Assembly: GCA_964016885.1 (NCBI GenBank)
Contig: CAXHJY010000151.1
Location: 186,001 to 250,000, forward strand
DNA length: 64,000 bases
Reading direction: 5' to 3'
Source of the DNA: Eledone cirrhosa
Taxonomy: Eukaryota
Positions 22,100 through 45,930 of the stretch are shown piece by piece. Both the position numbers and the translations under genes were made by a program. The notes under the pieces are model-generated. The model made no database searches. It was not told the DNA's origin and was given only the letters and a program-made list of their open reading frames with translations. Within the stretch, counting starts at the first letter, position 1, and each line of letters begins with the position of its first letter.

Positions 22100-22130
<31 letters not shown>

Positions 22131-22216: not shown

Positions 22217-22219
<3 letters not shown>

Positions 22220-23400: not shown

Positions 23401-23763
23401 ACGGAGTGAGACGTGCAGGAATACTCTCACGGAATCGCCAAATGAGGTTTATTTTTCAACATAGTCCCTGGAATGAAACAATGTGGTTATTAAGAAGAAT
23501 TGAAATTAATGTAAGATTTCACAGATCTATGATCAATCCTTCACAGTCAGCTTACAAAGTTTTCAGCCAAACCTTGTGTATTTCCAACATTTCAAACCCT
23601 ATCTAGGACTACATTATCTAATGTACAGTACAGTAGTTAGTATTAGTGGCTATCAGACATAGTGTATCTAAATGCAACATTTTTAACATTGTTTTTTCTT
23701 TTCTTTTCTTTTCTTATTCAGATGACAGACGGCAGAGGATACAATAGAAGAAAAGAACAATGA

Positions 23764-24186
23764 TAATTATTATTATTATTATTGTTGTTATTCCTTGAAT
23801 CTCAGTCATTGATGTTGGTTAACTGGAAAGTCCGTTGGAATGAATATCAAGCCACTACCTGCAGCCTCAGATATTCAGGACGTATCGGAGGGTTCTTGCT
23901 GTTCCAAGCAAGCATGCCTTTTGAAGCGTTCCAAAAAGCGTGAAGGGGCCGATTTTCTTTAACCATCCCTGGAAACTTTTGGAGATGGACAAAAAACTGG
24001 AACACAATAGACCTGACCTGGTGGTTGTGGACAAAGAAAAAAGATCGTGTCTGATTGTGGATGTGGCCTGCCCGTTCAACACGAGAGTGCAAGAGAAGGA
24101 GAGGGAGAAAATTAACCGATACCAGGACCTAAAGTGGGAGGTGAAAAGGATTTGGAACTGCCATGAAGTCAAAGTGATCCCGATTG

Positions 24187-24187
<1 letters not shown>
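23764..24187 (-). mobile_element. R4/Dong-like (REL endonuclease) non-LTR 3' fragment with 5' inversion, inserted in (TTA)n
   Basis: Plus strand 23985-24185: HNRPDLVVVDK...LIVDVACP...KEREKINRYQDLKWEVKRIW (PD-D/ExK fold). Minus strand 23985-23867: WLKKIG...LQKACLLGTARTLRYVL*, then UTR and (TAA)n. Confidence 0.8.
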
Positions 24188-24239
<52 letters not shown>

Positions 24240-24834
24240 TATTATTTGTTTTATTATAATCAAAATATGCTGTTAGTTAGATCTGCATTGTGTACATTTT
24301 ATATAATTTATGCCAGTTCCTTTTCTACATATCGAACATGGCCATTTCCCTGACGGAATAGAGTTTTGTCCTCTTTTCTACTCATCAACACTCATTCGTG
24401 ACACAAAGTACAGCCAGCGGCATCATTGCGGACAGACTTAATCCTGATTTGCACTGACACACTGCCTCGCAATACGGAACACCGCACGTCTTTGATCTTC
24501 TTCCCGTCGATCAGCCTCCTTGCCATGCAAAGTACACCTGACGTCTAGCTTCTCTCTTAGCGGCGGCGGCTGTATATTCTTCTCTACTCCCACTAATTTT
24601 CCAAGCATTCCATGCTAGTCTTTAGTCTCCAATGGCCCGATCTACAGTTTCTGTCTCAACTCGTCTATGCTTGGTCGTTCCCGCACATTGACATTGCACA
24701 TCCAACGGAGCATGCTTGCTTCATTTCTCTCCAGCCGTCGCATGTCCTCTGCAGTTGCTGCCCGTGTCTCACTACCATGCAGCATCGCGCATCTAAACCT
24801 GGCCCTTACCCTAACCCCAACCTCTTTGGTTTTC

Positions 24835-25672
24835 GTTTTCTCGACGGCTAGCCGCATTTCGTGATCCGCCTTTCGATTGCGCTTCCGTCGCGGCAAAAGA
24901 ATTGCCTTTCCAGACCGCCGTCGCCCGACCGGACCCATGATAGAAGACGTTCGTTACCGTTGGAGCAACGCAAATTACTCCTCGGTTGACGCCAAAAACG
25001 AACGCCTTCCCGCCTCGCGCCGCCTTCTCCTCGCCGACCCTCGGCCTCGACGATTAGCCACTTTCCGTCACAGCAGTAGATACGCGTCCGTCGTAATAGC
25101 CGTCATTTTAACGCAGGAGAAACGCCTAATTGCCCTGCACCGCGTTTGACGGCGATCTACGACGGCGACGATGCGCGCACTCTTCCTTGCTGCGACGAAG
25201 GTTTCGGCTTTTCGTCGTGGACCCGGTCAGGTCATGCCGCTGACCTCGCGTTACGGCGACGCGAGAAGACGTTCGTTACCGCTGGAGCAACGCAAATTAC
25301 TCCTCGGTTGACGCCAAAAACGAACGCCTCGCGCCGCCGCTTCCTCCTCGGCCTCGACGATTAGCCGCTTTCCGTCACAGCAGTAGATACGCGTCCATCG
25401 TAATAGCCGTCATTTTAACGCAGGAGAAACGCCTTGACGACGATATACGACGGGTCGACGACGCGCGCACTCTTTCTGCTGCGACGAAGGTTTTGGCTTT
25501 TCGTTGTGGACCCGGTCGGGTCATGCCTCTGACCTCGCGTTGCGTCGCCACCGCCGCGGCGGGCTTGGGTTTAGCCGTAGCTACCCTCGTTTTGCCAACG
25601 GCGACGCGAGAAGACGTTCGTTACCGCTGGAGCAACGCAAATTACTCCTCGGATGAGGCCAAAAACGAACGC
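24835..25672 (+). repeat. Orphan rearranged copy of the rDNA 5'ETS/IGS-like sequence
   Basis: Shares gaagacgttcgttaccgctggagcaacgcaaattactcctcgg and neighbouring blocks with 31795-32860. Confidence 0.75.
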
Positions 25673-25751
25673 TGAAGAGATATTGTCCATGGATATCGGG
25701 AATTTTACCCGCCCTAGATAGATAGATAGATAGGGATGTATGTATGTATGT

Positions 25752-25791
<40 letters not shown>

Positions 25792-26170
25792 GTATGTATC
25801 TTTCTCATTCTCTCTGTATGTATGTATGTATGTATATATATATAATTATATATTTATAGACATCCTGAAAGCTTTTTAAATGTCTGAGAGATTGGCTAAA
25901 TATGTTTTGCAGGTATGACCAGTAAGAGAGAGGTAAGTTATTTCAAAACAATTCTTTGACCATTATTTTAAGGTACTATCTCAGTGTATTTTTAAATTGA
26001 CCTCTTGATAGGATGAAATGACCTGTATAATTTTTTTCATATTTAGATGGAATAGAAGAAAAACAAGAAAAATGAAATGAATTCAAACAGAAAATATACA
26101 CCAATGCCAATGGAGGTATGATTTCAGTTTAATCTTAACCTAATGACCACTTTACAGAGTGTACTGGATA

Positions 26171-26241
<71 letters not shown>

Positions 26242-26689
26242 AGGAAGCTCCAACCGTTAAGGTTGTCTTTCCATTTATTAATATATTGTGTATTTACTCC
26301 ACTAAACTGTTGAGTGCTTTATATCAGTTATAAAAAAATTTCAGCTTGTTGAATCCCAAAATAGTTGTTGAAACAGCCACAGCTCAGCCGTCGGGGTCCT
26401 GAATATTTATCATATATATATACGTATGAGTGTGTGTGTTTTGAGAATTAATAATTATATAAACAAGTTTGTAATGAACAATTTATTTCTTATCAAAACT
26501 GTATAAACATGATATTATTTACAGTAAGAATAACAATAATAATGATGGTTTCTAGTAAAGGTGGAAGGCCAGTAATTTGGGGGAGGGGAAAGTTGATTAA
26601 ATCGAAGAGAGAAAGAAAGAAAAAACAGAACGGGAAGGAGAGGGGATGGCAAGAGGTCCGGTGTCGCAGGAGAGAGGGGAGGGTGGTTG

Positions 26690-27185
26690 AGCTTTGAGTC
26701 TAGGGCAAGAGGGCAGAAATGCTGCGCCCCACGGATAAGACGGCAAAAATATTCTCGCGGACGATGGCCAGAGATACCCAATGCAACAACCACCCAACCT
26801 CGCGGTGTTCCCTCCTCAGATGGGCTGCTGACTCTCCGATCTTTTGGAGGAGCTCGGCAGTACAAGGTCCAAGTACTCCTGGGGTCTCGACGTTGACTGG
26901 TGCAGAGAGGAAGTGGCCGGACAATCCTCGGTATTTGTTTATTTTACGTTCTTCTGCGAGGTGGGCTGCGATGCCGGGGTTTGTGACCGAAACGACTTGG
27001 AAACGAAGTTGTAGGCGGAGATTGTGTCGTAGCTGGTGGTGTCCCAGATGAGGGACCTACGTCCTTCGAATGGGAAGAGAGTGATTCCGTCGGGGCGCTT
27101 GCCATCTCCGGGACCTGTTGGCCCCAGTTGTGATGGGAAGCCAGCTGCGTCCAGGCTTCTTCTCAATATGTCGTTGACAACGACG
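26690..27185 (-). pseudogene. CRE-clade-like non-LTR REL endonuclease remnant
   Basis: DGKRPDGITLFPF.G.RSLIWDTT..DT and VETPGVLG...VSLAIVREN..VL in two frames (frameshifted). Confidence 0.7.
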
Positions 27186-27733
27186 TGTATCTATTCAATA
27201 ATTATTTGAATATTGAAATTTTAGGTTTAACTACCTTTTAAACCAAATACATTAAGAAAGGCATGACCAACACCACATCATTTTTATTTCTATTTTGAAA
27301 GTAGGTTTATAAGTATTAAATTTCAGTAGATTCTTATATCCTTCATGGTGGTCTGGTGGGAGATACGAGAGATGGTGGAGGTTCTGGTCTGGGGTTCAAT
27401 CCTGCTCAGGAGATACTCTAAGGGGGTTCATACTAAACTTCTTCAGTGTTTCTTATCTCTAGAGACAAATATATATACATAAGGTAATCTGGTAAAGTTG
27501 TTAGAACATCACATAGAATTCTTTGTAGTATTTTTTCCAGTTCTTCAATCTGAGTTCAACTTTACTTTTCTTCCATTCGGGGTTGATAATAACGTACCAG
27601 TCAAATACTAGGGGTTAATTCTTCCTCTATATCTCTTTCTCACTCTCTGTCTGTTTTATTAAGACCTGGAGAGGTGATGTACTCTACCAGGTTTTATAAT
27701 GAGTGATGGGGTCATACCTGCCTGCTACACCTC

Positions 27734-28055
27734 TGTGTACTAAGTGTAGCATATTATATCCTTGTTCAGGGCCTTCCTGACATTACTGTGTACTAAGGGT
27801 AGCATTTTATATCCTTGTTCAGGGCCATCTTAACATTGCTGTGTACTAAGTGTAGCATATTATATCCTTGTTCGGGGCCTTCCTGACATTAGTGTGTACT
27901 GAGTGTAGATTTTAACATCCTTGTTCTGGGCCTTCCTAACATTACTGTGTACTGAGTGTAGATTTTAACATCTTTGTTCAGAGCCTTCCTTACATTACTG
28001 TGTACTAAGTGTAGCATTTCATATACTTGTTCTGGGCCTTCCTAACGTTACTGTG
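27734..28055. repeat. 53-bp minisatellite, 6 copies
   Basis: tgtgtactaagtgtagcatattatatccttgttcagggccttcctgacattac at 53-bp spacing. Confidence 0.9.
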
Positions 28056-28840
28056 GAAATAGTAGTTTATATCCAATATGTAATATAGATATGGATTCTA
28101 CAGGACTAAAACTCATTAATATGAGGGGTATTAGTAGATTATATGCCATATTTAATAGAGAAATGGCTTCTACAAGACTAAAACTCATTAATATGAGGGG
28201 TATTACAGTTTATATGCCATATTTAATACAGAAATGGCTTCTAAAGGACTAGAACTCTTTAAATTGAATAAAATAGTAGTATATATCCTATGTTTAATAC
28301 AGAAATGCCTTCTAAAGGACTCATTAATATGAGGGTATTAGTAGATTATATAACATATTTAATACAGAAATGGCTTTTAAATTCAGGGACTCGTTAATTT
28401 GATGGAAATAGTAGTGTCTATGCAATATTTAATACAGAAATAGCTTCTACAGGACTAAAACTAATTAATATGAGGGGTATTAGTAGTATATGTGCCATAT
28501 TTAATACAGAGATGGCTTCTAAATGGAGGTATCTCATTAATTCGATTGAAATGGTAGTGTATATGCAATATTTAATACAGAAATAGCTTCTACAAGAATA
28601 AAACTCATTAATATGAAGGTTATTATTACATTATATGCCATATTTAATACAGAAATCGGTTCTAAAGGACTAGAACTCTTTAATTCAAATCAAATAGTAG
28701 TATAAAGCAATATTTACTACAGAAATGGCTTCTACAAGACTAAAAATCCTTAATATGAGGGGTATTGTTAGATTATATACCATATTTAATACAGAAATGG
28801 CTTCTAAATGAAGAAATCTCTTTAATTCGATAGTAATAGT
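28056..28840. repeat. ~71-bp AT-rich minisatellite, ~11 diverged copies
   Basis: Recurrent atatttaatacagaaatggcttcta...ctcattaatatgagggg. Confidence 0.85.
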
Positions 28841-29487
28841 AATAATAATAATAGTAATAGTAATAATACAGCCAATTTTCCACGCAATACTTTTAGTTAG
28901 CACCCCGAACGCATAATTGGGAATATAATCACTTATTTCCTAATGTTTGTTGAGTGAGTTGGGAAAAAAAACTTGGGAAATATATTTTCAGGGTCTCAAA
29001 ATCTTAAAGAGAAAAAAAAGTCCTGTGGAAGGTAGCAAAACAATTAGGAAGAAAATGGTTTGAAGTTGGTTGGTGAGTATAAGATTACAGTATCTTGTTG
29101 ATTTCTATAAAGTTTACTTTTAACTGAATTGGTAAAAATGGATAAATTAGAAGACACAATATAATAACTAATATTGTCTTCTAAAACAGGGAATAAAAAT
29201 ATGTTGGTGTATTGGGGGGGGGGGGGGGTAAACATGTGAGTTAATGGGAATGTTTTTGTTTGTTTTTATTGAAACATATTCAATCTACAGATAGGTTGTT
29301 ATAGTTATTTAGTCTCGGGTCTGCCATTATCTGCAGATTTATAATTGAGGGGTGTTCCAGGTGTGACCACCCTACATTATTCCTAGAGATTGTTACTCCT
29401 TCATTCTTCAGTCATCTTGGTCTTCTTATGAGATGGTGGTGTAGTCTTATTTATTGTTAAGGTTATGGTCTTCCTTTGTCCACACTC

Positions 29488-29525
<38 letters not shown>

Positions 29526-29779
29526 AAAGGCTTCCTTCTCTGGAAAAAGATGATTTAATATTCACAACCATCTGTCTAATTGTTTTCTGATGAGAATAAA
29601 GTTAATCTTGCTTGTATGTCTACCTGATCAAATGACTGGCTGATATCTTGAAGTCATTTACACCACAGAACTGTAGGAGTCTTGATCCCTCAAGCCATAC
29701 CTCTAGCCATCATGTACTCCAAAAGAGTCTCACCTTGGTGCTACTCAACATGTCCATTAAATTTAGCAGCAAGGATGCC

Positions 29780-30550
29780 CTCTTCTTAGTGAGAGACAAC
29801 TACAAGAGAGGTTCTTAGAGAAGAATAAGCCACTATAGTTAACTTTTGTTGACATAGAGAACCCCGATCTGTCATCTGGTGGTCCTTAAGGAAACTAGGT
29901 GTAGGGGAATGGCTTGTGAGGACAGTGCAAGCTATGTACAAGGGTGCTGTCAGTAAAGTGAGAGGAGGAATTCCAGAAACAAAGTAGGTGTACATCAGGG
30001 TTCGGTCCTCAGTCCGCTCTTGTTCATTATAGTCCTCCCTCCCTCCCTCCCTCCCTCCCTCCAAGCCATAACAGAGGAGGAGTAGTTTAAGACTGGATGC
30101 CCATGGGAACTTCTCTATGCTGACGATCTGGTTCTTATAGCAGAATCAGTAGAGGAGCTAGCTAGAGAATAAATTCTGGCTATGGAAACAGCAGTAGTTG
30201 GAATCAAGAAGACTGAGAGTGAACCTAGCTAAGACAAAAGTGTTTATAAGTAGAAGAGAGGACAAAACTCTGATTCTGTCAGGGAAATGGCCATGTTCGA
30301 TATGTAGGAAAGGAGTTGGCATAAATTCTATGAAATGTAGTACGCAATGCAGATCTTGGCTACACAAGAGATGTAGTGGGATAGCAGGAAAACTGACTGA
30401 CAGGTAGGGAGAAATACGTATGCAGTAGATGTACAGGGAAATTTGACAGAGATTGCAGTGATAGACACATTTTTCAAATGCAGGTGGGATCTATAGAGGG
30501 AGTTGATAGCTTCTGATACCTAGGTGATCAGATTAGTAAGGGAGGAGGGT
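29780..30550 (+). pseudogene. Decayed RTE RT core with PHD-like Cys/His insertion
   Basis: GVHQGSVLSPLLF and PWELLYADDLVL in the DNA translation, followed by LRVNLAKTK...WPCSICRKG...C..QC..WLHKRCSG. Confidence 0.8.
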
Positions 30551-31080
30551 GATATAAAATATATTGTTATCATGACTGTCTTTATTATTTAAATTACCTC
30601 TGTCTATTTACAGATTTTACAGAGTGTACTGGGTGCTTTTATGATGGGAGCAGCAACTCTATACGATTTTACAGAGTGTACTTGGTGCTTTTATCATGGC
30701 ACATGGCAGCAGCAGCAGCAGCAACTACGATTTTACAGAGTGTACTTGGTGCTTTTTACTCTGACATCAGCACTGAGGAAGTTGTCATATTTTCAGCTAA
30801 ATTAATGAGTAGAAAAACCAAGTTTCTGCTACAAAAAATTCTCAGATTCAAGGGAGACATTCAGTTTAAGTATGGTATACTGTCACTAAGGCAGCAAATT
30901 GGCAGAGTCGCTAGAATATCAGATAGCATTCTTTACATTATTTGTTTCAGCTCTCTGTTCTCTCAATTCAAATCCTGCTCAGGTCAACTTTGCCTTTCAT
31001 CCATACAAAATAGATTAATAAAAGTACCAGTGTATTACTGGGGTCAATTCTTCTTCTAACTCTTCTGCACTTCCATTCTC

Positions 31081-31159
<79 letters not shown>

Positions 31160-31379
31160 GCTTCTTTAGAACACATCTGCTGTATTCAGACCTGGAGCGG
31201 AGATGGGCTCCACCAAGTTTTAAAAATTGCCCTTTAAGCGCTGTATGTCAATATGGTGCCCCTATGATTCCCTCCCTCAGGAGTTATGGGACCATAGATA
31301 CTGTCAATTGTAAAGAATAACAGAGATATTCAGTGCTAGTGTGGTGTTCTGTCAGTTGTGGAGATTGATGAATCTAAAC

Positions 31380-31582
31380 AGAAATATCAACAGCACTTTT
31401 CATTTCTGAGTAACACATTTGTTACCAAGTGCTGCATGGCTGGAATGAAAATCAGTGCTGTGAAAACCAAGACATTCATCCTCTCAAGGAAGCTTGTGCA
31501 GTGCACTCTACATGTAAATGGAGTCCCACTGAAGCAGGTAGAAAAGTTCATGTATCTCGAAGCTGTGTTCACGAGTGATGAC
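31380..31582 (+). pseudogene. RTE/BovB-type RT fragment
   Basis: AGMKISAVKTK...VNGVPLKQVEKFMYL. Confidence 0.65.
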
Positions 31583-31707
31583 AGAGACGGCAAAGGCACA
31601 ACACACAACAGAAGAAAAGAACAATGACAATTATTATTATTATTTGTTTTATTAGTTTTATTATAATAAAAATTGTGCTGTTAGTTTGCTTGCTATACCA
31701 TCATGTA

Positions 31708-31794
31708 CCCTAACCCTAAACCTAACCCCAACTCCAACTCTGACCCTAAACCTAACCCCAACCCCAACCCTAACCCTAACCCTAACCCTAACCC
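31708..31794 (-). repeat. Interstitial telomeric tract (CCCTAA)n
   Basis: Four perfect CCCTAA at 31768-31791 preceded by degenerate hexamers. Confidence 0.85.
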
Positions 31795-32545
31795 ACGATA
31801 GAAGACGTTCGTTACCGCTGGAGCAACGCAAATTACTCCTCGGTTGACGCCAAAAACGAACGCCTTCTCGACGGCTAGCCGCATTTCGTGATCCGCCTTT
31901 CGATTGCGCTTCCGTCGCGGAAAAAGAATTGCCTTTATAGGCCGCCGCCGCCCGACCGGACCCACGATAGAAGACGTTCGTTACCGCTGGAGCAACGCAA
32001 ATTACTCCTCGGTTGACGCCAAAAACGAACGCCTTCTCGACGGCTAGCCGCATTTCGTGATCCGCCTTTCGATTGCGCTTCCGTCGCGGAAAAAGAATTG
32101 CCTTTATAGGCCGCCGCCGCCCGACCGGACCCACGATAGAAGACGTTCGTTACCGCTGGAGCAACGCAAATTACTCCTCGGTTGACGCCAAAAACGAACG
32201 CCTTCTCGACGGCTAGCCGCATTTCGTGATCCGCCTTTCGATTGCGCTTCCGTCGCGGAAAAAGAATTGCCTTTATAGGCCGCCGCCGCCCGACCGGACC
32301 CACGATAGAAGACGTTCGTTACCGCTGGAGCAACGCAAATTACTCCTCGGTTGACGCCAAAAACGAACGCCTTCTCGACGGCTAGCCGCATTTCGTGATC
32401 CGCCTTTCGATTGCGCTTCCGTCGCGGAAAAAGAATTGCCTTTATAGGCCGCCGCCGCCGCCCGACCGGACCCACGATAGAAGACGTTCGTTACCGCTGG
32501 AGCAACGCAAATTACTCCTCGGTTGACGCCAAAAACGAACGCCTT
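31792..32545 (+). repeat. 169-bp GC-rich tandem repeat (~4.4 copies), probable rDNA IGS/5'ETS origin
   Basis: Period 169/169/172 from repeated ORF ends. Ends ~360 bp upstream of the 18S start. Confidence 0.85.
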
Positions 32546-32903
32546 CCGGTTCGGGCGACGTAAAAGTCTGTAGCCTTTTCGCCGATCCTCGACGATTATC
32601 CGCCTTCCGAACAACCGCCTTTCCGCCGTCACAGCAGTAGGTACTCGTCCGTCGTAATAGCCGTCATTTTAATGCAGGAGAAACGCCTAAATGCACTGCG
32701 ATTGACGACGATCTACGACGCGCTTACTCTTCCTTGCTGCGACGAAGGTTTCGTTCGGCTTTTCGTCGTGGACCCGGTCAGGTCGTGCCGCTGATCTCGC
32801 GTTGCGTCGTTACCGCTGGAGCAACGCAAATTACTCCTCGTTTAACGCCAACATCGAACGCGCTTCGGTTCTCGGTCGTCGTTGTTTTGTTTCGTGCGGA
32901 AGA

Positions 32904-33088
32904 TACCTGGGTGATCCTGCCAGTAGTCATATGCTTGTCTCAAAGCTTAAGCCATGCAAGTGGAAGTTCATGCCGTAAACGAAAATGGTGAAACCGCGAA
33001 TGGCTCAGAAACCGGATCTAATCCTCGGGACCGTATTCCTCACCGCGAGGAGAGGATAACTGTGGCAATTCTAGAGCTAATACATGCA
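32904..33088 (+). rRNA. 18S rRNA 5' fragment (pseudogenic, first ~185 nt)
   Basis: tacctgggtgatcctgccagtagtcatatgcttgtctcaaag...gtgaaaccgcgaatggctca...ggataactgtggcaattctagagctaatacatgc matches the conserved eukaryotic SSU 5' end. Confidence 0.92.
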
Positions 33089-33096
33089 ATTGAGAT

Positions 33097-36000
33097 CGGA
33101 GAGGGAGCGATCCGTCTGCTTGATTCCGATAACGAACGAGACATTCGTATCCGAAAGAACGTTTGTCTGGAAACTGGTGCAGTCAGTGAGTCGAAAAAAA
33201 AATATCTCGGTGGTAGTAGCAAATATTCGAACGAGACATTCGTATGCGAAAGAACGTTTGTCGGTGGTAGTAGCAAATATTCGAACGAGACATTCGTATG
33301 CGAAAGAACGTTTGTCTGGAAGTGGCGATCCATGCCCGGTGGATAGTTGGTTCCGGGTTTTACTATGATTGTTGCAAAACAGAAACTTAAAGGGATTGAC
33401 AGAATTTGCGATTCCGGAGAGAGGGCGATCCGTCTGCTTGATTCCGATAACGAACGAGACATTCGTATCCGAAAGAACGTTTGTCTGGAAACTGGTGAGT
33501 CAGTGAGTCGAAAAAAAAATATCTCGGTGGTAGTAGCAAATATTCGTATGCGAAAGAAAAGATCTCGGTGGTAGTAGCAAATATTCGAACGAGACATTCG
33601 TAGGCGAAAGAAAAATATCTCGGTGGTAGTAGCAAATATTCGAACGAGACATTCGTATGCGAAAGAACGTTTGTCGGTGGTAGTAGCAAATATTCGAACG
33701 AGACATTCGTATGCGAAAGAACGTTTGTCTGGAAGTGGCGATCCATGCCCGGTGGATAGTTGGTTCCGGGTTTTACTATGATTGTTGCAAAACAGAAACT
33801 TAAAGGGATTGACAGAATTTGCGATTACGGAGAGGGGGCGATCCGTCTGCTTGATTCCGATAACGAACGAGACATTCGTATCCGAAAGAACGTTTGTCTG
33901 GAAACTGGTGAGTCAGTGAGTCGAAAAAAAAATATCTCGGTGGTAGTAGCAAATATTCGAACGAGACATTCGTATGCGAAAGAACGTTTGTCGGTGGTAG
34001 TAGCAAATATTCGAACGAGACATTCGTATGCGAAAGAACGTTTGTCTGGAAGTGGCGATCCATGCCCGGTGGATAGTTGGTTCCGGGTTTTACTATGATT
34101 GTTGCAAAACAGAAACTTAAAGGGATTGACAGAATTTGCGATTACGGAGAGGGGGCGATCCGTCTGCTTGATTCCGATAACGAACGAGACATTCGTATCC
34201 GAAAGAACGTTTGTCTGGAAACTGGTGAGTCAGTGAGTCGAAAAAAAAAATATCTCGGTGGTAGTAGCAAATATTCGAACGAGACATTCGTATGCGAAAG
34301 AACGTTTGTCGGTGGTAGTAGCAAATATTCGAACGAGACATTCGTATGCGAAAGAACGTTTGTCGGTGGTAGTAGCAAATATTCGAACGAGACATTCGTA
34401 TGCGAAAGAACGTTTGTCTGGAAGTGGCGATCCATGCTCGGTGGATAGTTGGTTCCGGGTTTTACTATGATTGTTGCAAAACAGAAACTTAAAGGGATTG
34501 ACAGAATTTGCGATTCCGGAGAGGGGGCGATCCGTCTGCTTGATTCCGATAACGAACGAGACATTCGTATCCGAAAGAACGTTTGTCTGGAAACTGGTGA
34601 GTCAGTGAGTCGAAAAAAAAATATCTCGGTGGTAGTAGCAAATATTCGAACGAGACATTCGTATGCGAAAGAACGTTTGTCGGTGGTAGTAGCAAATATT
34701 CGAACGAGACATTCGTATGCGAAAGAACGTTTGTCGGTGGTAGTAGCAAATATTCGAACGAGACATTCGTATGCGAAAGAACGTTTGTCTGGAAGTGGCG
34801 ATCCATGCTCGGTGGATAGTTGGTTCCGGGTTTTACTATGATTGTTGCAAAACAGAAACTTAAAGGGATTGACAGAATTTGCGATTCCGGAGAGGGGGCG
34901 ATCCGTCTGCTTGATTCCGATAACGAACGAGACATTCGTATCCGAAAGAACGTTTGTCTGGAAACTGGTGAGTCAGTGAGTCGAAAAAAAAATATCTCGG
35001 TGGTAGTAGCAAATATTCGAACGAGACATTCGTATGCGAAAGAAAAATATCTCGGTGGTAGTAGCAAATATTCGAACGAGACATTCGTATGCGAAAGAAC
35101 GTTTGTCTGGAAGTGGCGATCCATGCCCGGTGGATAGTTGGTTCCGGGTTTTACTATGATTGTTGCAAAACAGAAACTTAAAGGGATTGACAGAATTTGC
35201 GATTCCGGAGAGGGGGCGATCCGTCTGCTTGATTCCGATAACGAACGAGACATTCGTATCCGAAAGAACGTTTGTCTGGAAACTGGTGAGTCAGTGAGTC
35301 GAAAAAAAAATATCTCGGTGGTAGTAGCAAATATTCGAACGAGACATTCGTATGCGAAAGAAAAATATCTCGGTGGTAGTAGCAAATATTCGAACGAGAC
35401 ATTCGTATGCGAAAGAACGTTTGTCTGGAAGTGGCGATCCATGCCCGGTGGATAGTTGGTTCCGGGTTTTACTATGATTGTTGCAAAACAGAAACTTAAA
35501 GGGATTGACAGGATTTGCGATTCCGGAGAGGGGGCGATCCGTCTGCTTGATTCCGATAACGAACGAGACATTCGTATCCGAAAGAACGTTTGTCTGGAAA
35601 CTGGTGAGTCAGTGAGTCGAAAAAAAAAATATCTCGGTGGTAGTAGCAAATATTCGAACGAGACATTCGTATGCGAAAGAACGTTTGTCGGTGGTAGTAG
35701 CAAATATTCGAACGAGACATTCGTATGCGAAAGAACGTTTGTCGGTGGTAGTAGCAAATATTCGAACGAGACATTCGTATGCGAAAGAACGTTTGTCTGG
35801 AAGTGGCGATCCATGCCCGGTGGATAGTTGGTTCCGGGTTTTACTATGATTGTTGCAAAACAGAAACTTAAAGGGATTGACAGAATTTGCGATTCCAGAG
35901 AGAGGGCGATCCGTCTGCTTGATTCCGATAACGAACGAGACATTCGTATCCGAAAGAACGTTTGTCTGGAAACTGGTGAGTCAGTGAGTCGAAAAAAAAA

Positions 36001-36510
36001 TATCTCGGTGGTAGTAGCAAATATTCGAACGAGACATTCGTATGCGAAAGAACGTTTGTCTGGAAGTGGCGATCCATGCTCGGTGGATAGTTGGTTCCGG
36101 GTTTTACTATGATTGTTGCAAAACAGAAACTTAAAGGGATTGACAGAATTTGCGATTCCGGAGAGGGGGCGATCCGTCTGCTTGATTCCGATAACGAACG
36201 AGACATTCGTATCCGAAAGAACGTTTGTCTGGAAACTGGTGAGTCAGTGAGTCGAAAAAAAAATATCTCGGTGGTAGTAGCAAATATTCGTATGCGAAAG
36301 AAAAGATCTCGGTGGTAGTAGCAAATATTCGAACGAGACATTCGTATGCGAAAGAAAAATATCTCGGTGGTAGTAGCAAATATTCGAACGAGACATTCGT
36401 ATTCGAAAGAACGTTTGTCTGGAAGTTGCGATCCATGCCCGGTGGATAGTTGGTTCCGGGCTTTACTATGATTGTTGCAAAACAGAAACTTAAAGGAATT
36501 GACAGAATTT
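33097..36510 (+). repeat. Chimeric 18S/28S-derived satellite: ~10 units, mostly 263 bp plus 0-2 extra ~54-bp subrepeats
   Basis: Unit markers at 33347, 33760, 34077, 34449, 34820, 35138, 35456, 35828, 36091, 36450 (periods 413, 317, 372, 371, 318, 318, 372, 263, 359). Units contain recognisable SSU and LSU conserved motifs. Confidence 0.9.
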
Positions 36511-36526
36511 TCGAATCGACATCAAC

Positions 36527-36885
36527 TCGGCTACGGCTATCCCGTCGAGTACGAGAGTATCGCGGGATCAGAGCAACGGTTTGCTAGGCTGCCTCTGAGC
36601 GATAACGGCTGAACGCCTCCTCTAAGCCGGAACCCTAGCCGGACCCGAGTTGTTTTTCGACAAGCGTCTCGACCTTCTTAAGGCCCATGCCTTAGTTTGG
36701 CGATTGCCGTCCGTTCGCCGACGGCGGCAGCGTCAGCGGAAATGCCATTCTGTGACGACTACGACGATTCGTCGTCGTCGTCGTCCATTCGATTTCCTGA
36801 AAGAGATAGAGACTAAAGTGATCAAATTGTTCGGAGTTACGTGCTTAGTAGAGCAGCTACCACACTGCAATCTATTGAGAGTTTT
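36527..36885 (+). rRNA. 28S rRNA 3'-end fragments (pseudogenic)
   Basis: Sarcin-ricin-loop-like agtacgagag (36548), ggctgaacgcctc..taag, and agtagagcagct...ctgcaatctattga as in the LSU 3' terminus. Confidence 0.75.
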
Positions 36886-37629
36886 CTGACGAACGATACA
36901 ATCCGCCCACGTGGCGCCAGAAAGGGAGAAGAAAAGAAAAGTTAGACGCCGCCGATCGATCGGTTCGTTGTTTTACGTGTACACAGCTTGTGTGTGTGTC
37001 TGTATGTGATACAAGCCGCCTATCCGTCTTCCAAGTAAGTTTTGTGTGTAGACTGCGGAAAGAAATCCAATCCGCCGTCTAGGCGGTTCTGCCGCCGACC
37101 CATACTTTTGCGAGTCGCTCCCGGGAAAGACAGGCGGCAAGACGGCGTGTATACACGACGCCTTCCGTCTTCCGCCTCGAACCCGGGCAAACGTTCCTTT
37201 ATTCGTCCACGCCTTCCCGCTTCGATCGCGAGAAAGTAATCAATCTGTTTTGTGTGTGTGTCTGTGTGTGATACAAATTTGTTTTCTTAATTTGATAACC
37301 ATGAATTGTTTCAACACCGGCCCTTTTAAGGGCCACTTATATTTTCAATAATCAGTTTAAATGGGTTGCACCGTAGCCACTTGGTAATACACTGCAAATC
37401 TCCCGTCAATCTATGAAGGTTTTGTAGTAGATTAGATCAAAACACAATCAGCAAGACAGTAATGGAATGAATAATATAAACATTTGTTTATAATTAAAGC
37501 CTTAAGATGTCCCTCCCTCCCTCCCTTCCTTCCTTCCTTCCTTCCTTCCTTCCTTCCTTCCTTACGATATACACTTTAATAACATTGAAACTTATTTAAT
37601 AAGTTTAAATTTTAAACACTTTTTATTCA

Positions 37630-37762
37630 GACGTACCGCGATAAGTAACTAGATATGTTCTAACGAATAATCCGCGATGTGGCGAGGATTACCGCGATAG
37701 GAAATTAGATACGTTCCAAAGAAATATCCGCGAAAAGTGAACCGCGATATAGCGGGTTCACC
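37630..37762. mobile_element. Possible pogo/Tigger-like MITE end with ccgcgat subterminal repeats
   Basis: Five ccgcga motifs ending in accgcgatatagcgggttcac. The partner TIR was not found. Confidence 0.4.
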
Positions 37763-37925
37763 AGCCAGTGTATTACTGGTACTTTATTTTATCGACCCCC
37801 ATAAGGATGAAAGGCAAAGTTAACTGTGCAATAACAAAGGGAGATAACCTCGTCTTTTTTTTTTTACGGAGTTATTTCCCTTTAAATTTTATCTATTACT
37901 TATGATGATACAATTTAATCAGTTC

Positions 37926-38051
37926 TTAGCTGTCGAGACACTGCATCCTTTAAAACCTCCATGGAACAAGCTACCTGCAACAGTTGTTAGCTGTCGAGAC
38001 ACTGCATCTTTTAAAACCTCCATGGAACAAACTACCTGCATCAGTTGTTAG
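37926..38051 (+). repeat. 61-bp tandem duplicate of the CR1 ORF2 3' end
   Basis: Encodes WNKLPA.VVSCRDTASFKT, homologous to the reverse complement of ~18563-18627. Confidence 0.85.
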
Positions 38052-38318
38052 GGTCTGAGTTCAAATCACGCCGAGGAGGTTAACTTTGCCTTTCATCCTT
38101 ACGGGGTCGGTCGGAAAACGAACCATTCCCGGTTCGCTTTCGAAGCGGGTTTCCGAAAACAGCGCTTCTCTCGACCGGGCCCGTCGTCCGCTCGGCGGTG
38201 GTTTTCATCGTCCCAGGCACGGCTAACAGGCGGAGACGGGACAAACGCGCGTGTTCCTTTTTTTATCAGCCGCAGCGCCGTTCGTATATATGCTTAGGTT
38301 GTTTTTTTTTTAAATATC

Positions 38319-38534
38319 CTAAGTTAAGTTGGGGCTAAGTTAAGTTGGGGCTAAGTTAAGTTGAGGTTAAGTTGAGTTGGGGTTAAGTTAAGTGGGGGTT
38401 AAGTTAAGCTGGGGTTAAGTTAAGTTGAGGTTAAGTTAAGTTGGGGTTAAGTCAAGTTGGGGTTAAGTTAAGTTGGGGTTAAGTTAGGTTGGGGTTAAGT
38501 TAAGTTGGGGTTAAGTTAGGTTGCGGTTAAGTTA
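38319..38534 (+). repeat. 16-bp telomere-variant array (TTAAGTTAAGTTGGGG), ~13 copies
   Basis: Seen directly; G-rich strand is +. Confidence 0.85.
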
Positions 38535-41500
38535 CATTCGCCGCCGGACTTCAGCTTCCTCATTTAGCATGGGCAGTTTTTCTTGAAAATCACACCACAC
38601 ACAGCAAATGTGTGTCCGCACATGTACCAGTAATTACAGATCGATTCCGGTGAAAATTCACTGAAAACGGGCCATCCGGCCCTGTGCGTCGATCGTGGGC
38701 CGGCCGGATGTTGACGGATCGATGTGTAATTAGAAGTACATGTGCGGACACTCATTGGCTGTGCGTGGTATGCATTTCAGCAAGATATCTCCGTAACATC
38801 AAGAGTTATGGCTGTGGAGGCACACCTAGTCAAACGTAAACAAGGTCTGGAGCGTTTACGCTTCGCGATTTTGTTTACGTTTGACTAGGTGTGCCTCCAC
38901 AGCCACAACTCTTGATGTTACGGAGATATCTTGCTGAAATGCATACCGCGCACAGGCAATGAGTGTCCGCACATGTACTTCTAATTACACATCGATCCGT
39001 CAACATCCGGCCGGCCCACGATCGACGCACAAGGCCGGATGGCCCGTTTTCAGTGAATTTTCACCGGAATCGATCTGTAATTACTGGTACATGTGCGGAG
39101 ACACATTTGCTGTGTGTGGTGTGATTTTCAAGAAAAACTGCCCATGCTAAATGAGGAAGCTGAAGTCCGCCGGCGAATGGTGTGCTTCGAAGAAAACTAA
39201 TTCGAAAATGACCGTTTGCAGGCGGAGTAACCTTTTCGATCGTGGGCCAGCCGCCCGTGGTGGGATCCATCTGTAATTACTGGTACATGTGCGGACATAC
39301 ATTTGCTGTGTGTGGTGTGATTTTCAAGAAGAACTGCCCATGCTAAATGAGGAAGCTGAAGTCCGCCGGCGAATGGTGTGCTTCGAAGAAAACTAATTCG
39401 AAAATGACCGTTTGCAGGCGGGGTAACCTTTTCGATCGTGGGCCAGCCGCCCGTGGTGGGATCCATCTGTAATTACTGGTACATGTGCGGACACACATTT
39501 GCTGTGTGTGGTGTGATTTTCGAGAAAGACTGCCCATGCTAAATGAGGAAGCTGAAGTCCGCCGGCGAATGGTGTGCTTCGAAGAAAACTAATTCGAAAA
39601 TGACTATTTGCCGGCGGAATCACCTTTTCGGTCCTGGTCCGGCCGGATGTTGCCGGATCGATCGGAAATTTGTGGACCATGTTCGGAAGGCCATTGTGCA
39701 TGTGTGGTGAAAAAAATTTGTGTCGAAATCTTCTCGGAAAATAACGGATCGCCGGCGGAGATTGCCATTTCGATCGTGGGCCGGCCGGATCTTGTCGGAT
39801 CGATTCGGACATATGTGCATCGTGTTCGCAAGGCCCTTGTCTATGTGTGGTGTGATTTTCATAAAGAAATTCCGAAAAACCCAGTTTTAAATCTGATTTC
39901 GCCAAAGAATTTTGGCTATCAGATCGGGTTGAAAGGTATGGTTTCAGGTCGATCTGAAAGTCTAAAATGGAATTCACTCGGTTAGCTAACTATTGATATA
40001 TCGGAGATATCTTTCTGAAAATCACACCACACACTCCCAATGAGTGTCTGCACATGTACCAGTAATTACAGATGGATCCCACCACGGGCGGCCGGCCCAC
40101 GATCGAAAAGGTTACTCCGAAGCACACCATTCGCCGGCGGAATTCATTTAGCATGGGCAGTTTTTCTCGAAAATCACACCACACACAGCCAATGAGTGTC
40201 CGCACATGTACCAGTAATTACAGATGGATCCCACCACGGGCGGCTGGCCCACGATCGAAAAGGTTACTCCGCCTGCAAACGGTCATTTTCGAATTCGTTT
40301 TCTTCGAAGCACACGATTCGCCGGCGGACTTCAGCTGCCTCATTTAGCATGGGCAGTTTTTCTCGAAAATCACACCACACACAGCAAATGTGTGTCCGCA
40401 CATGTACCAGTAATTACAGATCGATTCCGGTGAAAATTCACTGAAAACGGGCCATTCGGCCCTGTGCGTCGATCGTGGGCCGGCCGGATGTTGACGGATC
40501 GATGTGTAATTAGAAGTACATGTGCGGACACTCATTGGCTGTGCGTGGTATGCATTTCAGCAAGATATCTCCGTAACATCAAGAGTTATGGCTGTGGAGG
40601 CACACCTAGTCAAACGTAAACAAGCTCTGGAGCGTATACGCTTCGCGATTTTGTTTACGTTTGACTAGGTGTGCCTCCACAGCCACAACTCTTGATGTTA
40701 CGGAGATATCTTGCTGAAATGCATACCACGCACAGCCAATGAGTGTCCGCACATGTACTTCTAATTACACATCGATCCGTCAACATCCGGCCGGCCCACG
40801 ATCGACGCACAGGGCCGGATGGCCCGTTTGCAGTGAATTTTCACCGGAATCGATCTGTAATTACTGGTACATGTGCGGACACACATTTGCTGTGTGTGGT
40901 GTGATTTTCGAGAAAGACTGCCCATGCTAAATGAGGAAGCTGAAGTCCGCCGGCGAATGGTGTGCTTCGAAGAAAACTAATTCGAAAATGACCGTTTGCA
41001 GGCGGGGTAACCTTTTCGATCGTGGGCCAGCCGCCCGTGGTGGGATCCATCTGTAATTACTGGTACATGTGCGGACACACATTTGCTGTGTGTGGTGTGA
41101 TTTTCGAGAAAGACTGCCCATGCTAAATGAGGAAGCTGAAGTCCGCCGGCGAATGGTGTGCTTCGAAGAAAACTAATTCGAAAATGACTATTTGCCGGCG
41201 GAATCACCTTTTCGGTCCTGGTCCGGCCGGATCTTGCCGGATCGATCGGAAATTTGTGGACCATGTTCGGAAGGCCATTGTGCATGTGTGGTGAAAAAAA
41301 TTTGTGTCGAAATCTTCTCGGAAAATAACGGATCGCCGGCGGAGATTGCCATTTCGATCGTGGGCCGGCCGGATCTTGTCGGATCGATTCGGACATATGT
41401 GCATCGTGTTCGCAAGGCCCTTGTCTATGTGTGGTGTGATTTTCATAAAGAAATTCCGAAAAACCCAGTTTTAAATCTGATTTCGCCAAAGAATTTTGGC

Positions 41501-44500
41501 TATCAGATCGGGTTGAAAGGTATGGTTTCAGGTCGATCTGAAAGTCTAAAATGGAATTCACTCGGTTAGCTAACTATTGATATATCGGAGATATCTTTCT
41601 GAAAATCACACCACACACTCCCAATGAGTGTCTGCACATGTACCAGTAATTACAGATGGATCCCACCACGGGCGGCCGGCCCACGATCGAAAAGGTTACT
41701 CCGAAGCACACCATTCGCCGGCGGAATTCATTTAGCATGGGCAGTTTTTCTCGAAAATCACACCACACACAGCCAATGAGTGTCCGCACATGTACCAGTA
41801 ATTACAGATGGATCCCACCACGGGCGGCTGGCCCACGATCGAAAAGGTTACTCCGCCTGCAAACGGTCATTTTCGAATTCGTTTTCTTCGAAGCACACGA
41901 TTCGCCGGCGGACTTCAGCTGCCTCATTTAGCATGGGCAGTTTTTCTCGAAAATCACACCACACACAGCAAATGTGTGTCCGCACATGTACCAGTAATTA
42001 CAGATCGATTCCGGTGAAAATTCACTGAAAACGGGCCATTCGGCCCTGTGCGTCGATCGTGGGCCGGCCGGATGTTGACGGATCGATGTGTAATTAGAAG
42101 TACATGTGCGGACACTCATTGGCTGTGCGTGGTATGCATTTCAGCAAGATATCTCCGTAACATCAAGAGTTATGGCTGTGGAGGCACACCTAGTCAAACG
42201 TAAACAAGCTCTGGAGCGTATACGCTTCGCGATTTTGTTTACGTTTGACTAGGTGTGCCTCCACAGCCACAACTCTTGATGTTACGGAGATATCTTGCTG
42301 AAATGCATACCACGCACAGCCAATGAGTGTCCGCACATGTACTTCTAATTACACATCGATCCGTCAACATCCGGCCGGCCCACGATCGACGCACAGGGCC
42401 GGATGGCCCGTTTTCAGTGAATTTTCACCGGAATCGATCTGTAATTACTGGTACATGTGCGGACACACATTTGCTGTGTGTGGTGTGATTTTCACGAAAA
42501 ACTGCCCATGCTAAATGAGGAAGCTGAAGTCCGCCGGCGAATGGTGTGCTTCGAAGAAAACTAATTCGAAAATGACCGTTTGCAGGCGGAGTAACCTTTT
42601 CGATCGTGGGCCAGCCGCCCGTGGTGGGATACATCTGTAATTACTGGTACATGTGCGGACACACATTTGCTGTGTGTGGTGTGATTTTCGAGAAAGACTG
42701 CCCATGCTAAATGAGGAAGCTGAAGTCCGCCGGCGAATGGTGTGCTTCGAAGAAAACTAATTCGAAAATGACTATTTGCCGGCGGAATCACCTTTTCGGT
42801 CCTGGTCCGGCCGGATCTTGCCGGATCGATCGGAAATTTGTGGACCATGTTCGGAAGGCCATTGTGCATGTGTGGTGATAAAAATTTGTGTCGAAATCTT
42901 CTCGGAAAATAACGGATCGCCGGCGGAGATTGCCATTTCGATCGTGGGCCGGCCGGATCTTGTCGGATCGATTCGGACATATGTGCATCGTGTTCGCAAG
43001 GCCCTTGTCTATGTGTGGTGTGATTTTCATAAAGAAATTCCGAAAAACCCAGTTTTAAATCTGATTTCGCCAAAGAATTTTGGCTATCAGATCGGGTTGA
43101 AAGGTATGGTTTCAGGTCGATCTGAAAGTCTAAAATGGAATTCACTCGGTTAGCTAACTATTGATATATCGGAGATATCTTTCTGAAAATCACACCACAC
43201 ACTCCCAATGAGTGTCTGCACATGTACCAGTAATTACAGATGGATCCCACCACGGGCGGCCGGCCCACGATCGAAAAGGTTACTCCGAAGCACACCATTC
43301 GCCGGCGGAATTCATTTAGCATGGGCAGTTTTTCTCGAAAATCACACCACACACAGCCAATGAGTGTCCGCACATGTACCAGTAATTACAGATGGATCCC
43401 ACCACGGGCGGCTGGCCCACGATCGAAAAGGTTACTCCGCCTGCAAACGGTCATTTTCGAATTAGTTTTCTTCGAAGCACACCATTCGCCGGCGGACTTC
43501 AGCTTCCTCATTTAGCATGGGCAGTTTTTCTTGAAAATCACACCACACACAGCAAATGTGTGTCCGCACATGTACCAGTAATTACAGATCGATTCCGGTG
43601 AAAATTCACCGAAAACGGGCCATTCGGCCCTGTGCGTCGATCGTGGGCCGGCCGGATGTTGACGGATCGATGTGTAATTAGAAGTACATGTGCGGACACT
43701 CATTGGCTGTGCGTGGTATGCATTTCAGCAAGATATCTCCGTAACATCAAGAGTTATGGCTGTGGAGGCACACCTAGTCAAACGTAAACAAGCTCTGGAG
43801 CGTATACGCTTCGCGATTTTGTTTACGTTTGACTAGGTGTGCCTCCACAGCCACAACTCTTGATGTTACGGAGATATCTTGCTGAAATGCATACCACGCA
43901 CAGCCAATGAGTGTCCGCACATGTACTTCTAATTACACATCGATCCGTCAACATCCGGCCGGCCCACGATCGACGCACAGGGCCGGATGGCCCGTTTTCA
44001 GTGAATTTTCACCGGAATCGATCTGTAATTACTGGTACATGTGCGGACACACATTTGCTGTGTGTGGTGTGATTTTCACGAAAAACTGCCCATGCTAAAT
44101 GAGGAAGCTGAAGTCCGCCGGCGAATGGTGTGCTTCGAAGAAAACTAATTCGAAAATGACCGTTTGCAGGCGGAGTAACCTTTTCGATCGTGGGCCAGCC
44201 GCCCGTGGTGGGATACATCTGTAATTACTGGTACATGTGCGGACACACATTTGCTGTGTGTGGTGTGATTTTCGAGAAAGACTGCCCATGCTAAATGAGG
44301 AAGCTGAAGTCCGCCGGCGAATGGTGTGCTTCGAAGAAAACTAATTCGAAAATGACTATTTGCCGGCGGAATCACCTTTTCGGTCCTGGTCCGGCCGGAT
44401 CTTGCCGGATCGATCGGAAATTTGTGGACCATGTTCGGAAGGCCATTGTGCATGTGTGGTGATAAAAATTTGTGTCGAAATCTTCTCGGAAAATAACGGA

Positions 44501-45535
44501 TCGCCGGCGGAGATTGCCATTTCGATCGTGGGCCGGCCGGATCTTGTCGGATCGATTCGGACATATGTGCATCGTGTTCGCAAGGCCCTTGTCTATGTGT
44601 GGTGTGATTTTCATAAAGAAATTCCGAAAAACCCAGTTTTAAATCTGATTTCGCCAAAGAATTTTGGCTATCAGATCGGGTTGAAAGGTATGGTTTCAGG
44701 TCGATCTGAAAGTCTAAAATGGAATTCACTCGGTTAGCTAACTATTGATATATCGGAGATATCTTTCTGAAAATCACACCACACACTCCCAATGAGTGTC
44801 TGCACATGTACCAGTAATTACAGATGGATCCCACCACGGGCGGCCGGCCCACGATCGAAAAGGTTACTCCGAAGCACACCATTCGCCGGCGGAATTCATT
44901 TAGCATGGGCAGTTTTTCTCGAAAATCACACCACACACAGCCAATGAGTGTCCGCACATGTACCAGTAATTACAGATGGATCCCACCACGGGCGGCTGGC
45001 CCACGATCGAAAAGGTTACTCCGCCTGCAAACGGTCATTTTCGAATTAGTTTTCTTCGAAGCACACCATTCGCCGGCGGACTTCAGCTTCCTCATTTAGC
45101 ATGGGCAGTTTTTCTTGAAAATCACACCACACACAGCAAATGTGTGTCCGCACATGTACCAGTAATTACAGATCGATTCCGGTGAAAATTCACCGAAAAC
45201 GGGCCATTCGGCCCTGTGCGTCGATCGTGGGCCGGCCGGATGTTGACGGATCGATGTGTAATTAGAAGTACATGTGCGGACACTCATTGGCTGTGCGTGG
45301 TATGCATTTCAGCAAGATATCTCCGTAACATCATGAGTTATGGCTGTGGAGGCACACCTAGTCAAACGTAAACAAGGTCTGGAGCGTTTACGCTTCGCGA
45401 TTTTGTTTACGTTTGACTAGGTGTGCCTCCACAGCCACAACTCTTGATGTTACGGAGATATCTTGCTGAAATTCATACCACGCACAGCCAATGAGTGTCC
45501 GCACATGTACCTGTAATTACACATCGATCCGACGA
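38535..45535. repeat. 1584-bp higher-order satellite of inverted 196/152-bp monomers, array 1
   Basis: ORF periodicity 1780 (=1584+196), 1584, 1584. Palindrome centres at ~38857, 40637, 42221, 43805, 45389. Confidence 0.95.
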
Positions 45536-45616
45536 CGGACAGAGTATTCGGTTTATTTTCTTGACATATTTCTTTACATATTGTCCAGGCATGCACTTTT
45601 TCCATGATTAGTTCTG

Positions 45617-45673
45617 TTGACGGCCCGCTTTCCAAAATACCTTATCCTGTGCAACGCCGGGTACCACTGCTAG
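45617..45673 (+). mobile_element. Helitron 3' terminus
   Basis: cctgtgcaacgccggg-taccactg-CTAG|TATAT; homologous to the reverse complement of 5280-5340. Confidence 0.75.
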
Positions 45674-45890
45674 TATATATATGTGTATGTATATATATAT
45701 ATATATTGGTAAACGGAATAGAAAATTGTGACAAATTGTTCACAGTGAAAAATAGTTTAATTAGGAATAAGTTATAATTAGTAATAGTATTGGTTAGTAT
45801 TAAGTTTTGGTTTTAAGTTTTACCGGTTGCGCATTTCTAATGCTTTTCAAAAATAATTTTGAGATAGAGCGTCCGTGATGTTTGCTCTGA

Positions 45891-45930
<40 letters not shown>

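Follow-up and report, generated by a model that had tools for sequence, protein, structure and literature searches.

Introduction

Satellite DNAs that arose from ribosomal DNA (rDNA) have been described in tomato, from the intergenic spacer (IGS; PMC2679016), in fish, where As51 also stems from the IGS (PMC13170303), and in frogs, where PcP190 stems from 5S (PMC11675491). The locus described here lies in a window of 64,000 nt, the whole stretch of Eledone cirrhosa DNA that was analysed, and holds an array that belongs to the same broad class of rDNA-derived satellites. As in the available accounts of the three known cases, a tandem repeat was born of rDNA and amplified outside functional genes. 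Judged by their descriptions, each of those satellites has a single source region (a spacer sub-repeat or the 5S gene), whereas the monomer of the present array is a permuted chain of at least seven tiny pieces of 18S, ITS1 and 28S.

Amplified mosaics that include a fragment of an rRNA gene have also been reported, namely Germ1 of lamprey and EEEb3 of hagfish (PMC9734144). In the accessible text these combine one rRNA fragment with a retroelement (R2-derived or SINE2), whereas the array monomer contains many rRNA-gene pieces and no retroelement. The lead they offered towards eliminated DNA was dropped after the host 18S was measured at 2,876 nt, and they are kept as analogues only.

Template-switching repair is known to leave chains of short templated insertions (PMC7347108, PMC13065848). 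The TST jumps and MM-BIR chromoanasynthesis of those reports, together with complex insertions in yeast (PMC11724301), share with the array a chain of short pieces at a rearrangement join, partial microhomology and some bases of unclear origin. In the parts of these sources available, the chains come from somatic or experimental cells and are made of often inverted pieces of about 150−200 bp (median 183 bp for TST-jump insertions; PMC7347108), whereas the pieces of the array are far shorter (15−39 nt) and without exception sense, and their chain has been inherited and amplified about 960-fold. Several short copied pieces do stand at a rearrangement join here, with microhomology at three solid and two tentative joins out of about ten. 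Since its pieces of 15−39 nt lie outside the TST-jump range of about 150−200 bp, the array chain works like a TST jump but is not classed as one.

Degraded rDNA pseudogenes have been described in human (PMC5381670), decayed rDNA pseudogenes have been reviewed (PMC10946416), and rDNA rearrangements at chromosome ends that have eroded are known from Chlamydomonas (PMC10620057). The present locus likewise is a displaced, collapsed rDNA unit with spacer and adjacent telomere-like tracts. As far as these sources were available, however, their rDNA decays or moves as large blocks, and they describe no satellite of scrambled micro-fragments. Template-switch retrocopies made by LINE and R2 elements (PMC2104539, PMC3414825) resemble the array in fusing copies of different RNA segments, all in sense orientation. 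As portrayed in the available text, those chimeras have 2−3 parts, terminate 3' in retroelement sequence and bear target-site hallmarks, whereas the array has no such end and its chain sits in place within rDNA.

In apicomplexan mitochondria, fragmented rRNA genes jointly rebuild the rRNA core and replace the intact genes. In the present host, 18S, 5.8S and 28S are all intact (Rfam), the array pieces total less than 200 nt, and shuffles of the monomer fold just as well as the monomer itself (z −0.81), so the array does not qualify as a set of functional fragmented rRNA genes; it is most likely non-functional. Searches of the open-access literature turned up no satellite with a monomer built as a permuted chain of 18S, ITS1 and 28S micro-fragments, and PMC10461843 contained nothing pertinent. 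For specialists in repeats and rDNA, the case is surprising and unusually traceable.

Units of the array

The array occupies positions 33095..36518 (all features located below are on the forward strand, except the macro-repeat, which is given without strand). Ten units of 263−413 bp were parsed, spanning 33095 to about 36518, with spacings of 413, 317, 372, 371, 318, 318, 372, 263 and 359; TRF reported periods of 54/55, 263 and 317−371 bp. The differences in unit length were accounted for by a 28S+ITS1 sub-repeat present in 1−4 copies per unit. The internal unit cores (n=9) were mutually 0−3 letters apart across 190 aligned bases. About ten homogeneous units had been claimed from the letters of the DNA, and the parse agrees with this. 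The monomers are thus homogenised, arranged head to tail and present in high copy number, as in a satellite. The array is a stretch of host rDNA scraps, larger in extent than first described. Long stop-free frames run across it and are regarded as a by-product of repetition.

Anatomy of the 263-bp monomer

The reference for assigning the monomer was the host's own rDNA (loci L017 and L018), located via 5.8S matches; Rfam annotation covered two of the ten rDNA stretches retrieved. A natural copy of the minimal monomer is found at 36002..36264. It opens with 28S 2083−2121 (36002..36040; 34 nt exact), which together with the following ITS1 289−307 (36037..36055; 18 of 19 bases) makes up the 54/55-bp sub-repeat, the two sharing a 4-nt word at their join. 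Eleven bases without an assigned source separate this first ITS1 copy from 28S 1396−1413 (36067..36084), which matches at 16 of 18 bases here and 17 of 18 in the first unit. The segment 36087..36147 carries 18S 1843−1857 and 1867−1896, then probably 18S 1976−1986 entered via a 6-nt shared word (tentative), with 13 unassigned bases within. At 36153..36167, 18S 575−589 (15 nt exact) marks the unit-to-unit join, where a 7-nt word is probably shared with 18S 2001−2007 (tentative). It is followed by 18S 2045−2080 (36169..36204; 35 of 36 bases), entered at a 5-nt shared word and exited through a 10-nt word that it has in common with 28S 2107−2116, and by a second, exact copy of ITS1 289−307 (36206..36224; 19 of 19). 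The final 40 bp (36225..36264) have no significant source in the rDNA unit; a weak likeness to 5.8S had a shuffle P of 0.04 in a targeted test chosen afterwards. The order is 28S, ITS1, 28S, 18S, 18S, 18S (probable), 18S, 18S, ITS1 and the 40-bp segment.

In total, 190 of the 263 bases were assigned to host rDNA as pieces of 15−39 nt from 18S, ITS1 and 28S, leaving 73 without a source. Every assigned piece is in sense orientation, out of order and 0−2 letters from the host rDNA. A jumping alignment of the monomer to the sense strand of the 22.5-kb rDNA unit scored 178.7 bits, compared to 11.7 for the antisense strand, 1.0 and 10.7 for the spacer (11,954 nt) and 2.0−13.3 for 30 shuffles. A laxer parse (jump cost 13), in which shuffles reached 60−87, was set aside for this stricter shuffle-controlled run. 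Exact matches between monomer and host rDNA measured 34, 23, 23, 19 and 15 nt, against an expectation of 0.005 matches of at least 15 nt per shuffled monomer. With 190 of 263 bases and 178.7 bits versus at most 13.3 in shuffles, the monomer derives from the host's own rDNA. Inverted ITS1 pieces of 9−11 nt were considered within it and rejected as not significant. For the 40-bp segment, a search across the rDNA unit gave nothing beyond shuffle level, and a genome pattern search gave 928 matches; among the 100 matches listed, all were exact and inside arrays.

The sequence-only reading had recognised scrambled SSU and LSU fragments, and 18S 575−592, 2042−2080 and 1843−1900 and 28S 2083−2121 were recovered against the host rDNA. 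Its view that the unit is not colinear with any one rRNA region survives this comparison. The words it had placed in the SSU central domain are really ITS1 289−307 (19 of 19 exact), for which the host 18S offers only a gapped match of 12 of 16. The motif was in ITS1 in all ten rDNA loci in which it was found (12 loci examined). Two further words had been put down as possible 5.8S; one overlaps the 28S 1396−1413 piece, which had been overlooked, the other has no significant source, and the 5.8S attribution is unsupported for both.

The array as a patch in a collapsed rDNA unit

The sequences flanking the array show the chimera to be a patch within an rDNA unit, not a free-standing repeat. The layout follows the native order: spacer, 18S 1−191, array, 28S 3' end and spacer. 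Upstream, spacer remnants at 31791..32903 include a 169-bp sub-repeat in 4.5 copies (31791−32546) and lead into the 18S 5' end (1−191) at 32904..33094, the left arm. The right arm at 36519..36939 consists of the 28S 3' end and downstream bases (Rfam LSU, 61.6 bits) and bears internal deletions of 26, 33 and 15 nt; a further spacer remnant follows at 36969..37276. The array therefore stands in place of 9,886 bp of rDNA from 18S:191 to 28S:~4641, a count that includes a 1,240-bp insert in the host 28S. Every assigned monomer piece originates within this replaced interval, as expected for a deletion with templated insertion. Within the window, Rfam gave neither 5.8S nor a full SSU or LSU; the intact genes are on other contigs, and the array thus lies outside functional rRNA genes. 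An origin from foreign (parasite) rDNA was rejected, as both the flanks and the pieces agree with rDNA arrays of the genome itself.

Other rDNA-derived blocks lie nearby. A separate 28S piece (~691−895) at 38114..38320 is followed by a degenerate TTAGGG-like 16-mer tract (38320−38534), and a second spacer block at 24822..25672 is preceded by a short telomere-like tract. At 31707..31794, a (CCCTAA)n telomere-like tract, with perfect repeats proximally and degenerate ones distally, is fused to the upstream spacer via a shared ACCC. Telomere-like tracts thus adjoin three rDNA-derived blocks of the macro-repeat unit described below, one of them via the shared ACCC, which suggests a history of DNA breaks and healing. 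The cleanest blocks relative to host rDNA were the 18S arm (7 substitutions in 232 aligned bases) and the separate 28S piece (3/195). The 28S 3' arm (34/414) and the spacers (28/439 and 27/273) were more diverged, and the flanks carry deletions of 5−74 nt.

Joins and microhomology

Three joins between pieces were solid, in that both flanking pieces were significant. The join 18S:592 to 18S:2047 has a 5-nt shared word (random-join P 0.0075), 18S:2080 to 28S:2117 a 10-nt word (P 0.00006), and 28S:2121 to ITS1:293 a 4-nt word with one substitution just upstream (P 0.022); the P values are from 200,000 draws in this rDNA. The first of these had been noticed as GGAGC joining two distant SSU sites and is borne out at 5 nt. 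The word AACGAGA (7 nt) had been proposed between LSU and SSU; a shared word is indeed there, and its length is 10 nt. Two further joins are tentative, each involving a short piece picked partly for its shared word: a 6-nt join from 18S:1896 to 1984, and a 7-nt join at unit closure (18S 2001−2007 with 574−580). The end of the last unit, read by eye, agrees with an unduplicated state at the 7-nt word; the same word at both patch ends would explain the first tandem duplication. About half of the approximately ten joins have no clear shared word or adjoin unassigned bases.

Amplification and copy number

Four nested levels of amplification were found: the 54/55-bp sub-repeat, the 263-bp monomer (4−24 units per array), the duplication of multi-unit blocks, and a macro-unit of about 30−50 kb present 59 times. 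Only the periods of 54 bp and 263 bp had been seen before, and the count of two levels falls short. Six arrays were parsed and held 4, 8, 10, 10, 17 and 24 units; in an array farther upstream on the same contig, a block of seven units is duplicated. One macro-repeat period carrying the array extends approximately over 17715..63580, with 59 copies in the assembly.

The join of the first unit occurs 59 times in the genome, all exact: 43 on contig C28 (124.72−126.45 Mb), seven on C178, five on C1185 and one each on C18, C398, C760 and C1204. An internal join has 959 exact copies on seven contigs, or about 16 per macro-unit. From these counts, the satellite amounts to about 0.3 Mb within a macro-array of about 2 Mb. 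Both edge stretches on C28 contain an N gap, so the true copy number may be larger. A search for an unamplified precursor with three junction patterns carrying host-type letters gave 0 matches. That the macro-unit might be a defunct version of the rDNA repeat of 40 kb found on contig C4 was rejected, because the alignment was limited to the rDNA pieces and some interspersed repeats present in both.

That the arrays are an artefact of assembly or library preparation, built from chimeric reads, was considered extremely improbable. The C28 array ends near N gaps on both sides, and the 59 first-unit joins are all identical, which could point that way. Against it, 959 exact copies of one join lie on seven contigs in arrays that differ in unit number and order (4−24 units in six arrays). 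In all four public short-read runs examined, a contig crossed the unit-to-unit join, and in one run (X1, which may be the assembled sample) a 135-nt contig spanned the array-to-28S join with no mismatch. The joins are thus present in short-read contigs, so the array is not an assembly artefact, and the objection raised in advance, that they might be absent from raw reads, does not apply. In run X8 (run kind unrecorded), which carries the organism code of X1 but stems from a second sample, the flank bins specific to the pseudogene had no cover, a coverage hole that carries no weight.

Of the 24 runs listed, from 17 studies, 20 contained words of the unit, whereas four sister runs contained none. 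No RNA run was listed among those containing the words, which carries no weight for or against expression. Two runs from other organisms contained the unit at a depth of about 17−19 and showed no array letters of their own. Homology in other species was rejected on account of these missing letters and the empty sister runs, and the matches were read as carry-over of a high-copy repeat.

Origin of the chimera

We lean, with slightly better than even confidence, towards microhomology-driven serial template switching during repair of a break in rDNA, followed by tandem amplification. One germline break-repair event would have left a patch filling the deleted interval: a low-processivity DNA polymerase would have copied 15−40 bases and changed template at short shared words, repeatedly, perhaps all in one burst of switching of the MMBIR/Pol-theta type, with same-strand rDNA as the template. 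The first tandem duplication would have been seeded by the 7-nt word at both patch ends, later growth of the array would have come from slippage and unequal exchange, and the end product would be inert heterochromatic repeat DNA. Serial template switching or MMEJ with subsequent amplification had been proposed by the sequence-only reading; the chimera, its amplification and partial microhomology stand, and about half of the joins show no clear word. In favour of template switching at a DNA break are the native order around the patch, the source of every assigned piece within the replaced interval, the shared words at the solid joins, the near-identity of the cleanest blocks and of the pieces to host rDNA, and the adjoining telomere-like tracts. 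The join evidence has weak points: the 4-nt join works only with one additional substitution, and shared words helped in selecting the 6- and 7-nt joins. The shortness of the pieces relative to TST-jump insertions, the 73 bases lacking a source, the failure to find an unamplified precursor and the greater divergence of the 28S 3' arm and the spacers also count against this account.

The template itself bears on the choice. Jumping of a reverse transcriptase (RT) on rRNA had also been suggested; the ITS1 piece in the monomer implies rDNA or unprocessed pre-rRNA, and not mature rRNA, as the template. A patch templated by pre-rRNA was therefore weighed: an RT (encoded by R2 or a LINE), or else a repair polymerase with RNA as its template, would be primed at the broken rDNA end, copy nucleolar pre-rRNA and jump from one site or molecule to another; the resulting chain of cDNA would seal the break before amplification. 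This was held to be doubtful, although several observations speak for it and some of them directly against DNA repair. The pieces are all sense and all from the transcribed region, including ITS1; the antisense score of 11.7 is within the shuffle noise (at most 13.3), and no piece comes from the 11,954 nt of spacer. Inverted pieces are common in DNA template switching and one-locus complex insertions of yeast (PMC11724301), at least in the available text, so the sense-only bias better suits an RNA template. This strict bias towards sense, transcribed sequence, exactly what an RT hopping on pre-rRNA would produce, makes the locus a natural test case for RNA-templated repair. The GC content of the monomer (44%, compared to 58−60% in 18S and 28S) and the hairpin-like character of the segments of 26, 33 and 15 nt absent from the 28S arm are in line with it. 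RTs would have been available: five of the six host rDNA stretches showing the 28S insertion position, which we take to be the R2-type site, carry an insert of about 1.2 kb there, and the macro-unit contains an ORF of 957 aa with endonuclease and RT (LINE), the sole Pfam match among seven non-array ORFs of the window scanned. Template jumping by R2 in vivo and double jumps by LINEs have been published (PMC3414825, PMC2104539), but the in vivo chimeras in the available text have 2−3 parts, not seven or more.

Other features of the locus oppose an RNA template. The parts are all sense, but the ending is not that of a retrocopy: neither poly(A) nor a LINE or other retroelement 3' end follows the patch, and the chain passes at ~4641 into 28S and then spacer, a point some 940 nt beyond the R2-type site in the downstream direction. 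The original ends, where any target-site duplication would stand, are hidden by the macro-repeat. Words of 5−10 nt shared at the joins suit annealing-driven DNA repair. The rDNA spacer blocks of the macro-unit are likewise all on the same strand, so the orientation bias is not peculiar to RNA. The strongest form of the RNA account, judged a shade more doubtful still, would make the locus a germline fossil in which an RT hopped at least seven times over nascent pre-rRNA and sealed a broken rDNA unit, the scar becoming a satellite of about 960 copies with perfect 18S/28S matches as long as 34 nt, whose transcription, if it occurs, could give small RNAs directed at rRNA. With matches of this length to live rRNA, the small-RNA idea is possible, though unsupported.

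Same-strand orientation would also result without RNA if a tandem block of at least three rDNA units had collapsed stepwise through serial microhomology-mediated deletions and duplications, since rDNA units lie head to tail and the 'backward' joins would be deletions over unit borders. Pieces in the opening half of the first unit run almost colinearly (18S, 18S, 18S, ITS1, 28S), ordinary deletions of 5−74 nt do occur in the flanks, and the 10-nt join may have arisen later, when two parts of the patch underwent exchange. We nevertheless regard such a collapse as improbable. It requires about seven islands of 15−39 nt to remain between independent multi-kilobase deletions, with none in the spacer, which is half of the unit, and it has to accommodate arms of 200−400 bp that survive with substitutions near 2−3%. 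With the cleanest blocks at 7/232 and 3/195 and pieces 0−2 letters off, the locus is too young for slow decay to have given about ten joins per 300 bp.

If the chimera began as one repair patch, as under the favoured template switching at a DNA break, the array would be a rare readable record of the birth of a satellite, a class in which the origin of the monomer is seldom traceable. Because every base of the template, host rDNA, is known, the joins and the levels of amplification can be read one by one. Complex chains of templated insertions of the type known from cancer or laboratory cells could then be inherited and seed a satellite. In this species, the hundreds of extra conserved words of rRNA primer type could disturb estimates of rDNA by qPCR, FISH and read depth.

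Composition of the macro-unit

In the ~30–50-kb macro-unit that carries the scrambled rRNA-fragment array, an open frame of 957 codons on the reverse strand (window 18532–21405) encodes endonuclease and RT domains. Its position within the macro-unit indicates that one LINE copy was amplified along with the whole. The window stretch 37314–37358 matched the Rfam histone 3′ stem-loop (36.6 bits, cut-off 34) and showed no difference across the 40 macro-units scored; no histone gene was seen beside it. A 1,584-bp repeat occupies window 38535–54142 and varies in copy number from one macro-unit to another; within it lie long inverted repeats as well as sub-repeats of 196 bp. A Pfam search of three ORFs from this repeat gave no match.

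A longer, 460-bp form (6746302–6746750) of the separate 28S piece found at window 38114–38320 was present on C18, another chromosome-scale contig of the host assembly, in a reshuffled macro-unit. Both forms end at the same telomere-like 16-mer tract, and the C18 form is probably an older state.

Host rRNA genes and the 28S insert

In the host's own rDNA, the 18S gene was 2,876 nt long (L017:3074–5949) with large GC-rich expansions, and the 28S gene was approximately 5.1 kb when its insert was left out. Taken with TTAGGG repeats and the type of SINE, these gene features may point to a coleoid cephalopod. The 28S insert of ~1.2 kb (L018:969–2208, on contig C12) lies at what we take to be the R2-type target site of 28S, and it has counterparts on C4, C6 and C25, the last of these with two arrays. 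The site was occupied in five of the six host rDNA stretches where it was seen; the C2 copy lacked the insert, but was locally rearranged. The longest ORFs in the insert did not exceed 137 codons. It looks like a non-autonomous, SIDE-like R2 derivative present in most assembled rDNA copies.

Representation in public sequencing runs

In run X1, contigs of the pseudogene flank and of host-type 28S (window 36150–37400) had nearly equal depths of ~4,100, which are not copy numbers. As a weak lead, these depths hint that dead rDNA units are about as numerous as live ones. In run X8, whose kind is unrecorded, the array-unit contig had a depth of 114 vs ~2,600–3,500 for host-type 28S contigs (again not copy numbers), and the ratio was the reverse of that in X1. 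X8 could be an RNA library containing array transcripts, or the unit could be there by carry-over; contig depth not being copy number, this too is a weak lead.

Among the runs listed, sister runs of those carrying words of the unit (window 36002–36264) contained none of them, and the word-carrying runs came under 17 different organism labels. The high-copy unit may be usable as a tracer of library cross-contamination.
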